Shown: positions 143-7,936 of the stretch, in pieces
Layout of the letters: every line of letters begins with the position of its first letter
Numbering within the stretch: the stretch's first letter is position 1
DNA from: a virus
Lineage: Duplodnaviria; Heunggongvirae; Uroviricota; Caudoviricetes
Length of the DNA stretch: 11,721 nucleotides
Strand: one strand, 5' to 3'
Virus record (IMG/VR): IMGVR_UViG_2663762849_000017
The notes under the pieces: model-generated
The model's input: the letters and a program-made list of their open reading frames with translations, nothing else
Told to the model about the DNA's origin: nothing
The model's database searches: none
Translations under genes and position numbers: made by a program

Positions 143-179
143 CTCTTGCGCTTCGCCATCCAGCGGCTGCGGCTCGACT

Positions 180-260
180 CATTGGTTATTTGTTGAAGTT
201 TTCTTATGTATTTGTGGTGGTGTTTTGAACACTCGGTGGCATTCTCACAAATATCATTTA
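180..260 (+). promoter_or_regulatory. Candidate late promoter (pR'-like) / leader region upstream of the lysis cassette
   Basis: AT-rich stretch with imperfect sigma70-like hexamers (e.g. TTGAAC at 225-230) about 100 bp upstream of an intrinsic terminator and about 250 bp upstream of the holin start, as in the lambdoid pR'/qut/tR' layout. The hexamers are weak and the exact promoter is not resolved. Confidence 0.25.
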
Positions 261-322
261 GTAGTTTACGTACGTAAAAAATTGGTTATGCTGTTAAGAG
301 TGGTTACTTCGTCACACAGCTT

Positions 323-350
323 AAACCCGCCGTCGAGCGGGTTTTTCCAT
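323..350 (+). terminator. Rho-independent terminator (tR'-like) in the late leader
   Basis: Perfect 8-bp inverted repeat AAACCCGC / GCGGGTTT (323-330 and 337-344) around a 6-nt loop, followed by a T-rich tract TTTTCCATTTTTT. Confidence 0.65.
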
Positions 351-484
351 TTTTTGAGTCTCGATATTAGCTGATAACCCAATACCTGAGTTATTCACTG
401 ACTCCGAATCTGTTACGTTTCTGCCTTTATTGCGATACGTAGTATCCCCTTAATTTACACCCGCTTTGTCTGCGAGGTGGGGTT

Positions 485-700
485 ATGAAATCCATGGATA
501 AGTTAACAACGGGTGTCGCCTATGGCACCTCAGCAGGTAGTGCCGGGTACTGGTTTTTACAGTTGCTCGATAAAGTCACGCCCTCACAGTGGGCGGCAAT
601 AGGTGTGCTGGGTAGTCTGGTATTTGGCTTGCTGACGTATCTGACAAACCTTTATTTCAAGATTAAAGAAGATAAGCGTAAGGCTGCGAGAGGTGAATAA
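485..700 (+). CDS. S: Class II holin (pinholin), phage 21 S21-like, 71 aa
   Basis: ATG at 485 preceded by a GAGGTGGGG Shine-Dalgarno. The N-terminus MKSMDK carries the dual-start motif (Met1/Met4) typical of S21 holin/antiholin. Two hydrophobic helices are followed by a charged C-terminus [13 protein letters not shown]. The protein closely resembles the phage 21 pinholin as I recall it. Its stop overlaps the next ATG (TAATG). Confidence 0.85.
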
Positions 701-3700
701 TGTCGCCATCATTACGCAAGGCTATTGCTGCTATTGGTGGTGGGGCTGTTGCCATAGCGTCTGTGCTCATCACTGGTCCGAGTGGTGACGATGGCCTGGA
801 AGGTGTCAGCTACATACCATACAAAGATATTGTTGGTGTATGGACTGTATGTCACGGGCATACAGGAAAAGACATCATGCTCGGTAAAACGTATAAAGGC
901 AGCAGTAAGGGGCATACCCCGCGCGAAGCGAAGGACAACCTGAAATCCACGCAGTTACTGAGTGTGATCGATGCCATCAGCGAAGGGCCGATTGAAGGTC
1001 CGGTGGATGGGTTAAAAAGCGTGCTACTGAACAGTACGCCGGTGCTGGACACTGAGGGGAATACCAATATCTCCGGTGTCACGGTGGTGTTCCGGGCAGG
1101 TGAGCAGGAGCAGACTCCGCCGGAGGGGTTTGAATCCTCCGGCTCCGAGACGGTGCTGGGTACGGAAGTGAAATACGACACGCCGATCACCCGCACCATC
1201 ACGTCGGCAAACATCGACCGTCTGCGTTTTACCTTCGGTGTGCAGGCACTGGTGGAAACCACTTCAAAGGGTGACCGGAATCCGTCGGAAGTTCGCCTGC
1301 TGGTTCAGATACAGCGTAACGGTGGCTGGGTGACGGAAAAAGACATCACCATTAAGGGCAAAACCACCTCGCAGTATCTGGCCTCGGTGGTGGTGGATAA
1401 CCTGCCTCCGCGCCCGTTCAATATCCGGATGCGCAGGATGACACCGGACAGCACCACAGACCAGCTGCAGAACAAAACGCTCTGGTCGTCATACACCGAA
1501 ATCATCGATATGAAACAGTGCTACCCGAACACGGCACTGGTCGGTGTGCAGGAGGACTCGGAGCAGTTCGGCAGTCAGCAGGTGAGTCGTAATTATCATC
1601 TGCGCGGGCGCATTCTGCAGGTGCCGTCGAACTATAACCCGCAGACGCGACAATACAGCGGTATCTGGGACGGAACGTTAAAACCGGCATACAGCAACAA
1701 CATGGCCTGGTGTCTGTGGGATATGCTGACCCATCCGCGCTACGGCATGGGGAAACGTCTTGGTGCGGCGGATGTGGACAAATGGGCGCTGTATGTCATC
1801 GGCCAGAATTGCGACCAGTCGGTGCCGGATGGTTTTGGTGGCACGGAGCCGCGCATCACCTGTAATGCCTGGCTGACCACACAGCGTAAGGCGTGGGATG
1901 TTCTCAGTGATTTCTGCTCGGCGATGCGCTGTATGCCGGTATGGAACGGGCAGACGCTGACGTTCGTGCAGGACCGGCCGTCGGATAAGGTGTGGACCTA
2001 TAACCGCAGTAATGTGGTGATGCCGGATGATGGCGCGCCGTTCCGCTACAGTTTCAGCGCCCTGAAGGACCGCCATAATGCCGTTGAGGTGAACTGGATT
2101 GACCCGGATAACGGCTGGGAGACGGCGACAGAGCTTGTGGAGGACACGCAGGCCATTGCCCGTTACGGTCGTAACGTCACGAAGATGGATGCCTTTGGCT
2201 GTACCAGTCGGGGGCAGGCACACCGAGCCGGGCTGTGGCTGATTAAAACGGAACTGCTGGAAACGCAGACCGTGGATTTCAGCGTGGGCGCAGAAGGGCT
2301 TCGCCATGTGCCGGGCGATGTTATTGAAATCTGCGATGATGACTATGCGGGTATCAGCATCGGCGGGCGCGTGCTGGCGGTGAACAGCCAGACCCGGACG
2401 CTGACGCTCGACCGTGAAATCACTCTGCCATCCTCCGGTACCACGCTGATAAGCCTGGTTGACGGAAGCGGCAATCCGGTCAGCGTGGAGGTCCAGTCCG
2501 TCACCGACGGCGTGAAGGTAAAAGTGAGCCGGGTTCCTGACGGCGTTGCCGGATACAGCGTGTGGGGGCTGAAGTTGCCGACGTTGCGCCAGCGCCTGTT
2601 CCGCTGCGTGAGTATCCGTGAGAACGATGACGGCACGTATGCCATCACTGCCGTGCAGCATGTACCGGAAAAAGAGGCCATCGTGGATAACGGGGCGCAC
2701 TTTGACGGCGACCAGAGCGGCACGGTGAATGGTGTCACGCCGCCAGCGGTGCAGCACCTGACTGCCGAAGTCACCGCAGACAGCGGGGAATATCAGGTGC
2801 TGGCGCGCTGGGACACGCCGAAGGTGGTGAAGGGGGTGAGCTTTATGCTTCGCCTGACCGTGGCAGCGGATGACGGCAGTGAGCGGCTGGTCAGCACGGC
2901 CCGGACGACGGAAACCACATACCGCTTCACGCAACTGGCGCTGGGGCGGTACACGCTGACAGTCCGGGCGGTAAATGCGTGGGGGCAGCAGGGCGATCCG
3001 GCGTCGGTATCGTTCCGGATTGCCGCACCGGCAGCACCGTCGAGGATTGATCTGACGCCGGGCTATTTTCAGATAACCGCCACGCCGCATCTTGCCGTTT
3101 ATGACCCGACGGTACAGTTTGAATTCTGGTTCTCGGAAAAGCGGATTACCGATATCAGGCAGGTTGAAACCACAGCCCGCTATCTTGGCACGGCGCTGTA
3201 CTGGATAGCTGCCAGTATCAATATTAAGCCGGGCCATGATTATTATTTTTATATCCGCAGTGTGAATACTGTTGGCAAATCGGCATTCGTGGAGGCTGTC
3301 GGTCAGGCGAGCGATGATGCTTCCGGCTATCTGGATTTTTTCAAAGGCCAGATAACTGAATCCCATCTCGGCAAGGAGCTGCTGGAAAAAGTCGAGCTGA
3401 CGGAGGATAACGCCAGCAAACTGGAGGAGTTTTCGAAAGAGTGGAAAGACGCCAACGATAAATGGAATGCCATGTGGGGCGTCAAAATTGAGCAGACCGA
3501 AGACGGCAGGCATTATGTCGCGGGTATTGGCCTCAGCATGGAGGATACGGAGGAAGGCAAACTGAGCCAGTTCCTGGTTGCCGCTAACCGTATCGCGTTT
3601 ATTGACCCGGCAAACGGGAATGAAACGCCGATGTTTGTGGCGCAGGGCAACCAGATATTCATGAACGAAGTGTTCCTGAAGTATCTGACGGCTCCCACCA

Positions 3701-4287
3701 TTACCAGCGGCGGCAATCCGCCGGTATTTTCCCTGACACCGGACGGGCGGTTGACGGCGAAAAATGCCGATATCAGCGGTAACGTGAATGCGAACTCAGG
3801 GACGCTCAATAATGTCACGATTAACCAGAACTGTCGGATTCTGGGAAAACTGTCTGCCAACCAGATTGAAGGTGATATTGTCAAAACGGTGGGAAAAGCC
3901 TTTCCGAGAAATGGCAGTTATGCCAGCGGTACAATAACGGTCACTGTGTACGATGACCAGGCTTTTGACCGTCAGATAGTAATCCCACCCGTTCTGTTTC
4001 GCGGTGGTAAGCATGAAAACTTCAACAGCAACAACCAACAGTCATACTGGTATTCAACCTGTAAGCTGCAGGTACTGAAGAACGGACAGGAAATCTTTCA
4101 GCAACCCGCGACGGATGTCAGCAGGGTATTTTCATCCGTCATTGATATGCCAGCGGGACACGGCCATGTCACCCTGACTTTCAATGTTTCTTCATATGGT
4201 GCAAATAACTGGACGCCAACGACCAGTATCAGCGACCTTCTTGTTGTCGTGATGAAGAAATCAACAGCCGGTATCAGTATCAGTTGA
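700..4287 (+). CDS. J: Chimeric ORF: N-terminal ~65 aa of a SAR endolysin (R21-like lysozyme) fused in frame to a lambda J-like tail-tip host-specificity protein (residues ~66-1195)
   Basis: Residues 1-65 ([65 protein letters not shown]) match the signal-anchor-release domain and start of the catalytic domain of phage 21 endolysin. From [22 protein letters not shown] onward the protein is collinear with lambda gpJ (recalled from memory). There is no ATG at the position of the native J start, so translation depends on the R start. The ORF is uninterrupted over 3.6 kb. The last ~140 aa differ from the lambda J C-terminus and are lower in GC. Confidence 0.85.
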
Positions 4288-4305
4288 ATTTTATAACCCA
4301 AATAC

Positions 4306-4331
4306 GGGCGCCAGAAATGGCGCCTTTTTTA
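4306..4331 (+). terminator. Rho-independent terminator between J and stf
   Basis: GGCGCC (4307-4312), loop AGAAAT, GGCGCC (4319-4324), followed by TTTTTT (4325-4330). Confidence 0.6.
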
Positions 4332-4345
4332 TTTGTGGAGTGAAT

Positions 4346-6406
4346 ATGGCAGTACAGATTTCAGGCGTGCTGAAAGACGGTGCAGGAAAACCAATACAGA
4401 ACTGTACTATTCAGCTCAAAGCAAAGCGTAACAGCACCACGGTACTGGTGAACACGGTGGCCTCTGAAAATCCGGATGAAGCCGGGCGTTACAGCATGGA
4501 TGTTGAGTATGGCCAGTACAGCGTCACCCTGCTGGTTGAAGGTTTTCCGCCTTCACATGCCGGGACCATTACCGTCTATGAAGGTTCCAGACCAGGTACG
4601 CTGAATGATTTTCTCGGTGCCATGACGGAAGATGATGTCATGCCGGAGGCATTGCGTCGTTTTGAGGTAATGGTGGAGGATGTGGCACGCAACGCTGAAG
4701 CCGCCTCTCAGAGCGCAGCGGCAGCAAAGAAATCAGAAACAGCAGCGGCATCGTCCAGGAACGCGGCGAAAACATCAGAGACGAATGCAGGTAACAGCGC
4801 GAAAGCGGCAGCTTCTTCAAAAACAGCCGCACAAAACGCAGCAACAGCGGCAGAACGTTCAGAGACAAATGCCCGTGCGTCAGAAGAAGCCTCCGCAGAC
4901 AGTGAAGAGGCTTCCCGCCGTAATGCAGAGTCAGCCGCTGAAAATGCCGGAGTCGCCACCACAAAAGCGCGGGAGGCTGCAGCAGACGCAACAAAGGCCG
5001 GGCAGAAAAAGGATGAGGCTCTGTCGGCAGCGACACGAGCTGAAAAGGCGGCAGACCGCGCAGAAGCCGCAGCGGAAGTGACTGCAGAGCCCTATGCGAA
5101 TATAGTGCCGCCGCTGCCTGATGTGTGGATACCGTTTAACGATTCACTGGATATGATTGCGGGTTTTTCTCCGGGCTATAAAAAAATAGCTATTGGTGAC
5201 GATGTGGTTCAGGTCGCCAGTGATAAACAGGTTAATTTCAGTCGCGCATCAACGGCAACATATATCAACAAATCTGGCGAACTGAAAACGGCGGAAATTA
5301 ATGAGCCGCGATTTGAGTGTGATGGCCTGCTTATTGAGGGACAAAGAACGAACTACATGCTCAATTCGGAAAGTCCAGCCAGCTGGGGGAAGTCATCAAA
5401 CATGGATGTGCCCGAAACCGGGACGGATAGTTTTGGTTTTACTTATGGAAAGTTTGTCTGCAACGATTCTCTGGTTGGGCAAACTTCGGCTATTAATATG
5501 GCATCAATTGCTGCAACAAAGTCAGTTGATGTCTCAGGCGATAACAAGTACGTGACAACCTCATGCCGTTTTAAAACAGAACGACAGGTAAGGTTACGTA
5601 TACGGTTTGATAAGTATGATGGTAGTGCAACAACTTTTCTTGGCGATGCGTACATTGATACGCAAACGCTTGAAATTAATATGACAGGTGGTGCTGCCGG
5701 CAGAATTACGGCACGAGTCAGGAAGGATAAGACCACGGGCTGGATTTTTGCAGAGGCAACGATTCAGGCAATTGATGGAGAGTTAAAAATAGGCTCTCAG
5801 ATACAGTATTCTCCTGAGCAGGGTGGGGCAACAGTATCTGGTGACTATATTTATCTTGCCACCCCACAAGTAGAGAATGGACCATGTGTATCATCATTTA
5901 TTATTTCAGGAGGCAGCGCAACGACAAGAGCCAGTGATTTGGTTAGTATCCCCACCAGAAATAATCTTTATAAGTTACCATTTACTTTTTTACTTGAGAT
6001 TCATAAAAACTGGGATATTGCACCAAACGCCGCACCCCGCGTGTGGGATATAGCAGCAGCCAATACCGGGCAATCAGCAATTGCAGCAATCAACAGAGGT
6101 AGTGGTAAGTTATATATGAGTCTGTCAAACCCTTCAGGCTCGTATGTTAATAGCGCAGCGACAGATGTATTTGCAGAGAAAACCACATTTGGATGTATTG
6201 CAAAAGCTGATGGTCACTTTCATGTGGTGACAAATGGTAAAGCGGTTAATGAAGTTTATTGTGAATATAATGGCGTGACCGCTGATAAAAATATCCGATT
6301 TGGAGGGCAGACGAATACTGGAGAACGACATCTGTTTGGCCATATTCGCAATTTCCGCATATGGCATAAAGAATTAAATGACAGGCAATTAAAAGAGGTC
6401 GTATGA
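4346..6406 (+). CDS. stf: Side tail fibre protein (lambda Stf-like N-terminus, Ala/Ser-rich shaft, divergent lectin-like C-terminal domain)
   Basis: The N-terminus MAVQISGVLKDGAGKPIQNCTIQLKAKRNSTTV...GRYSMDVEYGQYSVTLLVEGFPPSHAGTITVYE matches the lambda Stf N-terminal domain as I recall it. It is followed by an Ala/Ser/Glu-rich repetitive shaft. The C-terminal ~430 aa are encoded by lower-GC DNA and end in NFRIWHKELNDRQLKEV, a motif typical of concanavalin-A-like/LamG jelly-roll domains. I place the start at ATG 4346 with GGAG 6 nt upstream; the ORF track starts at GTG 4340. Confidence 0.8.
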   Translation: MAVQISGVLKDGAGKPIQNCTIQLKAKRNSTTVLVNTVASENPDEAGRYSMDVEYGQYSVTLLVEGFPPSHAGTITVYEGSRPGTLNDFLGAMTEDDVMPEALRRFEVMVEDVARNAEAASQSAAAAKKSETAAASSRNAAKTSETNAGNSAKAAASSKTAAQNAATAAERSETNARASEEASADSEEASRRNAESAAENAGVATTKAREAAADATKAGQKKDEALSAATRAEKAADRAEAAAEVTAEPYANIVPPLPDVWIPFNDSLDMIAGFSPGYKKIAIGDDVVQVASDKQVNFSRASTATYINKSGELKTAEINEPRFECDGLLIEGQRTNYMLNSESPASWGKSSNMDVPETGTDSFGFTYGKFVCNDSLVGQTSAINMASIAATKSVDVSGDNKYVTTSCRFKTERQVRLRIRFDKYDGSATTFLGDAYIDTQTLEINMTGGAAGRITARVRKDKTTGWIFAEATIQAIDGELKIGSQIQYSPEQGGATVSGDYIYLATPQVENGPCVSSFIISGGSATTRASDLVSIPTRNNLYKLPFTFLLEIHKNWDIAPNAAPRVWDIAAANTGQSAIAAINRGSGKLYMSLSNPSGSYVNSAATDVFAEKTTFGCIAKADGHFHVVTNGKAVNEVYCEYNGVTADKNIRFGGQTNTGERHLFGHIRNFRIWHKELNDRQLKEVV
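4680..5090 (+). repeat. Ala/Ser/Glu-rich low-complexity repeat region inside stf (fibre shaft)
   Basis: Reiterated motifs such as AAxxSETNA / AASS / AAENA in the translation. The GC-rich repetitive codons produce spurious ORFs in other frames and on the opposite strand. Confidence 0.6.
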
Positions 6407-6681
6407 AAGATTTAACTTTGAAGTTTCATGACAAACTGCAGTTTAAGGCCTTCCTGTCATCTCTTGGCTGGGCGGAAGATGAAGACCTCCAGAATAAACT
6501 GTTAGTTGATGAAATTGGTTTCACCTACACAGAAACAGGGGTAACAGAAGAGGGAGAACCTGTCTGTATCCGGAATGATGGTTATTTTGTCAACATTCGC
6601 ATTCTTGATGACTTGTTTGATGTTTCTGTATTCTCTGATTATGTCGTGGAGCTGGAAACACCGCTTCGGGAATGGAGCTGA
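6403..6681 (+). CDS. Hypothetical acidic 92-aa protein, translationally coupled to stf; possible tail-fibre accessory/chaperone by position only
   Basis: ATG at 6403 overlaps the stf stop (ATGA), with AAAAGAGG 4 nt upstream. The product is acidic and has no hydrophobic segment. It does not resemble the lambda Tfa N-terminus and its family was not recognised. Confidence 0.5.
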   Translation: MKDLTLKFHDKLQFKAFLSSLGWAEDEDLQNKLLVDEIGFTYTETGVTEEGEPVCIRNDGYFVNIRILDDLFDVSVFSDYVVELETPLREWS

Positions 6682-6693
6682 AAGGAGGAAATA

Positions 6694-7134
6694 ATGGATA
6701 TAAGCCCCTTACTTCATGCACTTTGTGCTGTGGCTGCGCAGATACTGGTTGGTCTTTTTACCGGAAACTGGGCTTACGGAGCGATAGCCGGTTGTACGTT
6801 CTTCATTGCGCGTGAACATACCCAGGCAGAATATCGCTGGATTGAAATGTTCGGGCATGGCAAGCGAATGAATATGCCGTGGTGGGGCGGTTTTGATCCG
6901 CGTGCTTGGGATGTGGCAAGCCTGATGGATTTTGCTGTGCCGGTGGTGGCGTGTCTGCTGGTCTGGCTGTTGGTTAATCGTGGGCGAAAAAAGGTGAGCT
7001 GTATATGCAACGGAGGAAGAAACCCCGTTGCTGGAAGCCAGGAAAAAGTATCGGGTGTTGCTGTCCTCGGATGTTGTGCTAATTGGGTGATAACAGATCC
7101 TGTGTATGGGAGTTTCCCTTTTTGCGTGCGTTGA
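6694..7134 (+). CDS. Hypothetical small integral membrane protein (about 3 predicted TM helices), 146 aa; C-terminal extent uncertain
   Basis: Strong Shine-Dalgarno AAGGAGG 5 nt before ATG 6694, 12 nt after the previous stop. Hydrophobic segments are LLHALCAVAAQILVGLFTG, AYGAIAGCTFFIA and VASLMDFAVPVVACLLVWLLV, followed by RGRKK. The last ~18 codons overlap the convergent sitD 3' end, so the true C-terminus is uncertain. Confidence 0.5.
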   Translation: MDISPLLHALCAVAAQILVGLFTGNWAYGAIAGCTFFIAREHTQAEYRWIEMFGHGKRMNMPWWGGFDPRAWDVASLMDFAVPVVACLLVWLLVNRGRKKVSCICNGGRNPVAGSQEKVSGVAVLGCCANWVITDPVYGSFPFCVR

Positions 7135-7936
7135 TGCTGGTAACGGCAAACGTCATGATGAACAAAACCGCGAATAAGACGACAATCGTCGGAGCTGGTG
7201 CGCTGTCGATAAAAAAGGACAACCAGACACCAGTCATTGACACTATTACCGATATGCCAGTCGCCAGTAGGAGCGCAATATGAAAGCGTTGTGTCAGGAG
7301 TACCGCAATGGCGCCAGGCGCAATGAGCAGAGAAATGGAGAGAATGATACCTACCGCTTTCAGCGTCGCCACAATGGTCAGAGAGACCATGCACAGCAGC
7401 CCATAATGCAGCCATCTCGTATGCAAACCGCTTACCTGCGCCTGTTGATAATCAAAGCTGAACAGCAAAAAATCCCGCCATTTTACGCTAATAACAAGTG
7501 TAACCAGCCCGGCAATAATCATCGTCTGGATTATATCGCCGATGGTTATCCCGAGCATGTCGCCGAAAAGAATATGGTCAAGATGTACGTCTGGTTTGAC
7601 TGCAATATACAAGATCAGACCTGCGGCAAACATGCCAGAAAAAACAATCCCCATCACTGTATCTTGCTTGATTCGGCTGTTGTCTTTCAGGTATCCCGTC
7701 GCCACCGCGCAGAATACTCCGGCGACGAATGCCCCTGTAGCCAAAGGTAACCCCAGAATCCAGGCAAGCACGATGCCAGGAAAAACCGCATGACTCATCG
7801 CGTCACCCATCAGTGCCCAACCTTTCAGGACCAGAAAGACTGACAGCAGCGCACAGGGTATGGAAACTACCAGTGAAATCAGCAGTGCGTGACTCATAAA
7901 GGTGAACTGCAGTGGCTCCAGTAATAATGCCATCAT
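7079..7936 (-). CDS. sitD: Mn/Fe ABC transporter permease SitD
   Basis: 285-aa polytopic membrane protein, last gene of a four-gene operon (binding protein, ATPase, two permeases). Its start overlaps the sitC stop by 4 bp. Confidence 0.85.
   Translation of the reverse strand: MMALLLEPLQFTFMSHALLISLVVSIPCALLSVFLVLKGWALMGDAMSHAVFPGIVLAWILGLPLATGAFVAGVFCAVATGYLKDNSRIKQDTVMGIVFSGMFAAGLILYIAVKPDVHLDHILFGDMLGITIGDIIQTMIIAGLVTLVISVKWRDFLLFSFDYQQAQVSGLHTRWLHYGLLCMVSLTIVATLKAVGIILSISLLIAPGAIAVLLTQRFHIALLLATGISVIVSMTGVWLSFFIDSAPAPTIVVLFAVLFIMTFAVTSINARKKGNSHTQDLLSPN

Follow-up and report, generated by a model that had tools for sequence, protein, structure and literature searches.

An 11,721-nt stretch of viral DNA (IMG/VR record IMGVR_UViG_2663762849_000017; the window in what follows) encodes a lambda-like tail tip protein J with a C-terminal end unlike that of lambda. 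This raises the questions of where the receptor-binding end came from, which receptor it would recognize, and whether it still serves a phage. A sequence-only reading of the window had proposed a mosaic swap of the receptor-recognition module, implying a receptor other than LamB. The reading that we favor, with a probability of about 0.82, is that a phage-21-type allele was placed on a lambda-type J by homologous recombination, that its receptor is LamB with a latent capacity to use OmpC, and that it now persists as a relic in a cryptic prophage.

J is found within a single long ORF, which is laid out as follows.

700..4287, plus strand: the long ORF, 1195 aa, with its stop codon at 4285-4287.
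700..894, plus strand: the 5' part (65 codons) of a phage-21-type signal-anchor endolysin (R'), in frame with J (PF00959, identity to phage 4A7).
895..3099, plus strand: the hub domains and two FNIII/Ig domains of J, lambda-like, GC 0.596 (91-99% nucleotide identity to lambda; Pfam).
3100..3815, plus strand: the alpha-helical shaft and central straight fiber of J, lambda-type, GC 0.515 (informative sites; PF09327).
3816..3882, plus strand: the distal end of the straight fiber, which opens the phage-21-type block and holds I1060 (equivalent to I1025 of phage 21).
3883..4284, plus strand: the receptor-binding domain, residues 1062-1195, a phage-21-type Ig-like beta-sandwich (identity, PF12421, PDB matches, AF2/Foldseek).

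The Pfam families found in the J body (895-3099) are FNIII-A_GpJ, Phage-tail_3, Ig_J, and Ig_J_second. They are followed by PF09327 (Phage_Tail_Tip), which covers ORF residues 908-1035 and directly precedes PF12421 (Ig_GpJ_C), a family titled 'Tip attachment protein J, C-terminal receptor binding domain'. The PF12421 match covers residues 1073-1195 and reaches the end of the ORF (E = 1.5e-37; 129.1 bits against a cutoff of 26.2). Residues 1-65 of the ORF are not J, as homology to phage J starts at nt 894; PF00959 (Phage_lysozyme) matches residues 33-82 with 28.1 bits (cutoff 22.3).

We compared the ORF with J of lambda (NC_001416, 1132 aa) and J of phage 21 (OL657228, 1160 aa) in a three-way alignment. 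Residues 66-1061 follow lambda J collinearly from codon 3 onward, with an identity of 95.3% (950/997) overall and of 95% over residues 66-1038, and the collinearity noticed in the sequence-only reading for most of the length of J therefore stands. So does the divergence that it reported for the last ~140 residues: when the C-terminus was aligned to other J proteins, no close match to lambda was obtained, and the 134 residues past the GDIV motif are 43% identical to their lambda counterpart (60/139), with three indels. When the nucleotide sequence was compared with lambda in 120-nt bins, identity was 0.89-0.99 through nt 3735, with most bins at 0.93-0.97, then 0.73 over 3736-3855, and 0.51-0.59 over 3856-4287. 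At sites where lambda and phage 21 differ, the window is lambda-type over 3334-3651, mixed to 3815, and phage-21-type without a break over 3816-4284. The diverged block covers 3816-4287 (157 aa) and takes in the last ~22 residues of the straight fiber. Its sharp break near nt 3816 lies ~65 nt upstream of nt 3880, from which the divergence had first been counted and which is where the receptor-binding domain proper begins.

Replacement of the domain by a non-homologous one was considered, and was ruled out by the PF12421 match and by sequence and fold matches in the PDB. In sequence, the best PDB matches of the block were the gpJ713 fiber of A8 (9wca/9wcb, 1.4e-98) and lambda gpJ (8xcj/8xck, 2.6e-48). 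An AF2 monomer model of the 157-residue block, built from an alignment from which short or frameshifted fragments (the majority of the protein-search matches) were left out, had a pLDDT of 80; the unstructured fiber strands scored low, as expected for a monomer. Foldseek matched this predicted model to 9wcb/9wca (TMq 0.81-0.82) and then to 8xcj/8xck (TMq 0.75-0.76), all with a probability of 1.00. The block is thus no foreign domain but a version of the same Ig-like domain that has diverged deeply from that of lambda.

How this allele came to lie on a lambda-type J is indicated by the substitution rates. Relative to lambda, dS is 0.20 in the J body and 1.38 in the receptor-binding domain (about 7-fold higher), while dN is 0.020 and 0.51, respectively. 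The rise in dS supports a recombinational swap, and a dS of 1.38 points to a long separate descent of the two alleles. Relative to phage 21, the block shows 97-99% nucleotide identity (dS 0.12, dN 0.003), while the helical shaft and upper fiber upstream of it (3340-3615) show 33-63%. The same block thus sits on a different backbone in phage 21, which indicates that it moves between backbones. With the abrupt transition, the dS jump, and the second backbone all agreeing, the mosaic swap proposed from the sequence is supported. Homologous recombination would have joined a phage-21-type C-terminal module of gpJ, made of the last turns of the fiber and the 134-residue Ig-like domain, to a lambda-type J body.

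Could the C-terminus instead have diverged in place, under fast positive selection in a receptor arms race and with the lower GC as a by-product? Diversifying selection is known to act on the host-range regions of J (cited in PMC11336670), dN/dS versus lambda is 0.10 in the body but reaches 0.37 in the domain, and GC1 and GC2 fall as well as GC3. Selection on the protein, however, leaves the ~7-fold excess of dS in the domain unexplained, and the identity profile changes in a step, without a gradient. The 97-99% identity of the block on the different backbone of phage 21 also argues against divergence in place, as does the comparison with phage 4A7, from which the window differs by ~4-5% in the J body yet, in the final 690 nt, by about 1%. 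We consider divergence in place very improbable, and retain the recombinational swap.

The DNA encoding the C-terminus had also been described as less GC-rich than the rest of J. The sliding-window GC analysis agrees: GC is 0.475 over 3880-4287 and 0.573 over 894-3879 (chi-square p = 2e-4), only 2.8% of the 408-nt windows within J are as low, and every one of these overlaps the 3' end. GC3 is 0.52 in this region and 0.70 in the rest of J, and GC1 and GC2 are lower too. The description needs one qualification, however, once J is taken by segment. In the window, GC is 0.596 in the hub/FNIII segment, 0.515 in the shaft and straight fiber, and 0.470 in the phage-21-type block; over the equivalent segments of lambda, it is 0.592, 0.524, and 0.547. 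The first step, at ~nt 3100 (0.596 to 0.515), leads into a segment that is still lambda-like; lambda has the same step, which thus belongs to J in general, and what sets this allele apart is the last decrease alone, to ~0.47. The low GC was not accepted as a sign of foreign origin in an AT-rich host, as 0.47 is near the values of the downstream side tail fiber gene (0.478) and of the phage 434 allele (0.481). The part of the gene with an unusual GC content is the J body (0.596), not the C-terminal block. The lower GC of the block probably stems from a long separate history of alleles such as those of phages 21 and 434, which have a GC of ~0.47-0.48, next to an unusually GC-rich J body. A 611-aa ORF on the minus strand (1678-3513), antisense to GC-rich J sequence, most likely reflects the high GC3 of J (0.70) and not a gene.

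The step from divergence to a receptor other than LamB was not supported, as the domain is identical at 133 of 134 positions to that of phage 21, which uses LamB. LamB is the native receptor of phage 21 (OL657228), and a lamB knockout is not lysed by it (Borin 2023, 10.1101/2023.04.13.536812); its ancestor is listed as 'L', LamB only (Gerbino 2024, PMC11336670, Table 1). Under selection, phage 21 gave rise to OmpC-using variants and later to use of OmpF (10.1101/2023.04.13.536812), and the single substitution I1025T, located just before the domain, adds OmpC (PMC11336670). We checked that J of OL657228 carries I1025 and V1026; the window has the same GDIV junction, in which I1060 corresponds to I1025. 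It should be noted that the laboratory stock of phage 21 behind the published results on LamB, OmpC, and OmpF carries G18903A relative to OL657228; by our mapping, this is E1071K, a change within the long hairpin of the domain (L001 4706). The corresponding residue 1106 of the window (nt 4015-4017) is E, as in the GenBank sequence of phage 21, and not the K of the stock. The stock with the measured LamB dependence and the window domain hence differ at 2 of the 134 positions (E1071K; V/I at 1056). By this near-identity to phage 21, LamB is the best-supported receptor of the window domain. Use of OmpC may be latent in it, and could be unlocked by single destabilizing substitutions at the junction of fiber and domain.

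The surface that would meet the receptor was examined on the predicted model. Four distal loops were delimited from the AF2 secondary structure and the alignment with lambda.

3898..3927, plus strand: predicted distal loop L1, residues 1067-1076, 4 residues shorter than in lambda.
4024..4038, plus strand: predicted distal loop L2, residues 1109-1113 (NSNNQ), at the tip of the long hairpin.
4111..4122, plus strand: predicted distal loop L3, residues 1138-1141 (TDVS), with 0/4 identity to lambda.
4201..4236, plus strand: predicted distal loop L4, residues 1168-1179, identical in A8.

The strands of the model alternate such that these four loops (block residues 29-38, 71-75, 100-103, and 130-141) lie at one end and three short turns at the other. 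The turns hold the conserved motifs DD-FDRQ, NG, and DMPAG, with 8/11 residues as in lambda, while the loops share 9/31 residues with lambda and all three indels fall in or beside them. The hairpin bearing L2 is 5 residues longer than that of lambda, and the loop itself has 0/5 identity to lambda and is identical in A8; L4 has 4/12 identity to lambda and a 1-residue indel just upstream. From topology, not from coordinates, we infer that the four loops form the distal, receptor-facing side of the predicted domain. In lambda, the four loops L1-L4 on the underside of the trimeric domain enter the mouth of the LamB trimer, and the three domains move apart below while closing above. The straight fiber becomes more compact and twisted through newly formed hydrogen bonds, with a flip of the helical shaft and opening of the tail tip (PMC11101478). 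By analogy with the lambda and A8 structures, three copies of the window domain would form the tip of the central tail fiber in a virion, and their four distal loops would enter the mouth of a trimeric porin on its extracellular side, spreading the domains, twisting the fiber, and opening the tail tip so that the DNA can be ejected.

The porin in question might also be OmpC, which is a real but less likely alternative to LamB. A8 is an engineered lambda chimera that delivers DNA via OmpC in cells lacking LamB (Brodel et al. 2024, PMC11338833), and the PDB entry 9WCB, titled 'Open state of A8 gpJ 713 central tail fiber with OmpC G17 from E. coli EDL933', contains OmpC chains. The C-terminus of A8 comes from E. 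coli prophages, in which it occurs as a natural allele (P0007, 852 member sequences), and its domain is 81% identical to that of the window, which keeps OmpC a candidate. In the predicted loops, A8 and the window are the same at L2 and L4 and differ at L1, L3, and their flanks, with Q96N, P98S, A99T, V102A, S103Q, and R104G (block numbering) at and around L3; these are loops of a model, not contacts read from 9WCB. As A8 differs by only 19% and yet binds OmpC, specificity in this clade can hinge on a few residues.

The stronger form of this alternative, raised in the sequence-only reading, is that the domain recognizes a receptor other than LamB. OmpC would then be the likeliest, and the ancestral phage would have had a host range unlike that of lambda. 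The closest solved structure is indeed that of A8 gpJ with OmpC (9WCB), with identical L2 and L4; A8 delivers DNA to lamB-deleted cells (PMC11338833), phage 21 itself is one mutation away from OmpC (PMC11336670), and little of the lambda contact surface is kept at 43% identity. We nevertheless regard a non-LamB receptor as unlikely, because the window domain matches phage 21 at 133/134 positions, junction and I1025 included, and the ancestral phage 21 is restricted to LamB and does not lyse a lamB knockout (10.1101/2023.04.13.536812; PMC11336670, Table 1). A8, for its part, is 25 differences away in the 134-residue domain, with clusters in and around the predicted L1 and L3. No adsorption experiments on this exact protein or on phages 4A7 and 1W were found, including in PMC10089163, the deposition paper of phages 1W and 3W, which holds no receptor tests for these two phages; a receptor-screen preprint (10.64898/2026.04.02.716166) deals with gpJ of Drexlerviridae, not with lambdoid J alleles.

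LamB therefore remains the preferred receptor, and the main value of the case is a caution against inferring a receptor from divergence. The domains of lambda and phage 21 are 43% identical and use the same porin, whereas those of the phage 21 type and A8 are 81% identical and use different porins. Divergence of a host-range module can thus not be read as a change of receptor, and the nearest characterized allele has to be identified first.

Whether this J still serves a phage is answered by the other end of the ORF and by what surrounds it. Window positions 179-893 are 98.9% identical to the holin and endolysin 5' region of phage 4A7 (46608-47325) and of Lambda_4C10, the holin being of the phage 21 type (PF04971), and positions 894-11659 match 4A7 15413-28715, from J codon 3 onward. 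At the junction (nt 892-895), the endolysin sequence GKTY is followed by KGSSKGH of J, so that endolysin codon 65 is fused to J codon 3. The start of J itself is absent, as its codons 1-2 are replaced by the 65 endolysin codons. Relative to 4A7, and in prophage order, this corresponds to a deletion of ~17 kb with endpoints at 47325 and 15413, which took the rest of the lysis cassette, cos, all head genes, and the other tail genes.

The junction is not confined to this record. Positions 400-1300 are 100% identical to the chromosomes of E. coli SCU-387, FDAARGOS_1252, and MS20645, and the same junction was found in 79 of 5,426 complete E. coli genomes. The element of FDAARGOS_1252 occupies the icd site and contains, in order, damaged O/P, nin genes, Q, an OmpC-family porin, the holin, R'-J, the side tail fiber, sitDCBA, and an icd fragment; no head genes and no other tail genes (I, K, L, M, H, etc.) were found in the context of this element. 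FDAARGOS_536 carries an IS4 inside the same fused J (L006 8097-9442), leaving two pseudogene fragments, and the receptor-binding end of this split J is still 100% identical to the window.

As the prophage lacks head genes and the other tail genes, the receptor-binding domain is a relic here. The gene itself showed no decay relative to 4A7, with an intact ORF and 101 synonymous versus 23 non-synonymous codon differences; the window has 13 lineage-specific amino-acid changes in J and 4A7 has 9, and no relaxed constraint was seen. Because this copy is undamaged, the term relic rests on its context and on the IS4-disrupted sister copy. The module is a well-preserved relic in a cryptic phage-21/4A7-like prophage, and not a working host-range determinant of the strain. 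At most, this J copy would provide spare parts: being intact in a gutted prophage, the module could still be picked up through recombination with an incoming lambdoid phage. The allele is often found in prophages, and the locus illustrates a common fate of such modules.

An intact fusion shared by many genomes might also be taken for a domesticated host gene, in which the signal anchor targets the protein to the envelope and the domain serves, for example, to block porin-using phages. The fusion is in frame, its 1195-codon ORF is intact and shows no non-synonymous excess relative to 4A7, its junction is common to the 79 complete genomes, and the Q antiterminator and holin upstream of it are intact. 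One deletion in three would be in frame by chance, however, the 79 genomes may represent a few clonal lineages, and the same J is interrupted by IS4 in a sister strain. In addition, an inner-membrane anchor would not reach the outer face of the porin, which is what the domain binds. We consider domestication extremely improbable. Hardly more credible is the suggestion that the fusion is expressed from a surviving late operon (Q, holin, fusion) and sent to the envelope, where the porin-binding domain would have a host-level role, or, in a milder version, that the hybrid J carried by this lineage has a broader choice of receptors. If the former were true, an envelope-targeted fusion might interfere with phages using LamB or OmpC; if the latter, the combination of a lambda fiber with a phage 21 domain might have a wider range than phage 21, such as constitutive use of LamB and OmpC. 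We therefore keep to a relic of a phage tail gene.

Several neighboring genes deserve mention. The side tail fiber ORF (window 4340-6406) is intact, with 688 aa from a GTG start, a tail-fiber N-terminal domain, and a concanavalin/laminin-G-like C-terminus; on identical sequence, RefSeq splits it into a pseudogene fragment and a 'head spike fiber domain' protein. Between the side tail fiber region and the end of the prophage lies, as cargo, the sitDCBA operon for an iron/manganese ABC transporter (window 7079-10528, minus strand), placed as in phage 21 and its relatives. The sitABCD transporter is probably the reason why the gutted prophage has been retained. A duplicated 3' fragment of icd (isocitrate dehydrogenase) is present at 11441-11608, and similarity to phages stops at 11659; these mark where the prophage ends on its right side, at an attachment site of the phage 21 type. 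GC is 0.35 in the final, AT-rich 1.2 kb of the window. Just upstream of the left end of the window, between Q and the holin, an OmpC-family porin of 360 aa is encoded on the minus strand (L003 12414-13496), with OmpC/OmpK36 as its best PDB matches (E about 1e-135). A prophage porin beside a gene for a porin-binding tail tip may have a bearing on superinfection exclusion.

The allele itself is widespread. Over the query, it is identical (138/138) in the free phages 4A7 and 1W and 99.3% identical in phage 21, ev017, 1H12, and others, followed by graded relatives at ~90%, 80%, 62%, 47% (Fels-1), 45% (lambda type), and 41% (434 type), for 243 phage records in all. In ~1,083 of the 5,426 complete E. 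coli genomes (about a fifth), the block is present at a nucleotide identity of at least 95%. From phages that have been sequenced and studied experimentally, both the allele with its mosaic distribution and its receptor are already known.

Among these, phage 21 (OL657228, CPT_21_21) shares the fiber/domain junction and 133 of the 134 domain residues, and phages of its group have the same downstream genes as the window (side tail fiber, sitABCD, and icd fragment). In J of phage 21, the helical shaft and upper fiber are different and 28 residues longer, whereas those of the window are lambda-type, as in 4A7. Unlike phage 21, the window has a J without its first two codons, owing to the endolysin fusion, in a prophage without the other tail genes. 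Phages 4A7, Lambda_4C10, 1W, and 3W encode J proteins with a domain identical to that of the window (134/134 for 4A7 and 1W).

The closest solved structure is that of the A8 gpJ chimera (9WCB, open; 9WCA, closed), which agrees with the window at every position of the predicted L2 and L4 and of the last 30 residues. It is set apart by 25 substitutions in the domain (109/134 identical; 28 substitutions across the 157-residue block), located around the predicted L1 and L3 and in several strands. Lambda gpJ, solved with LamB (8XCJ, open; 8XCK, closed; PMC11101478), belongs to the same PF12421 family, has the same predicted Ig-like fold (TMq 0.75), occupies the same place at the end of the trimeric fiber, and keeps the top-end motifs; its receptor would also be the same, judging from phage 21. 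The window domain differs from it in sequence (43% identity), in GC (0.47 versus 0.55), and in loop lengths, the three indels (4, 5, and 1 residues) lying in or beside the predicted contact loops. Finally, J of phage 434 (OL657226), the classical OmpC-using host-range allele, has a domain of the same family in the same position and a similarly low 3' GC (0.48). With 40% identity (57/142) and other loop lengths, this OmpC-type domain is not close to that of the window, and is no nearer to it than lambda is.
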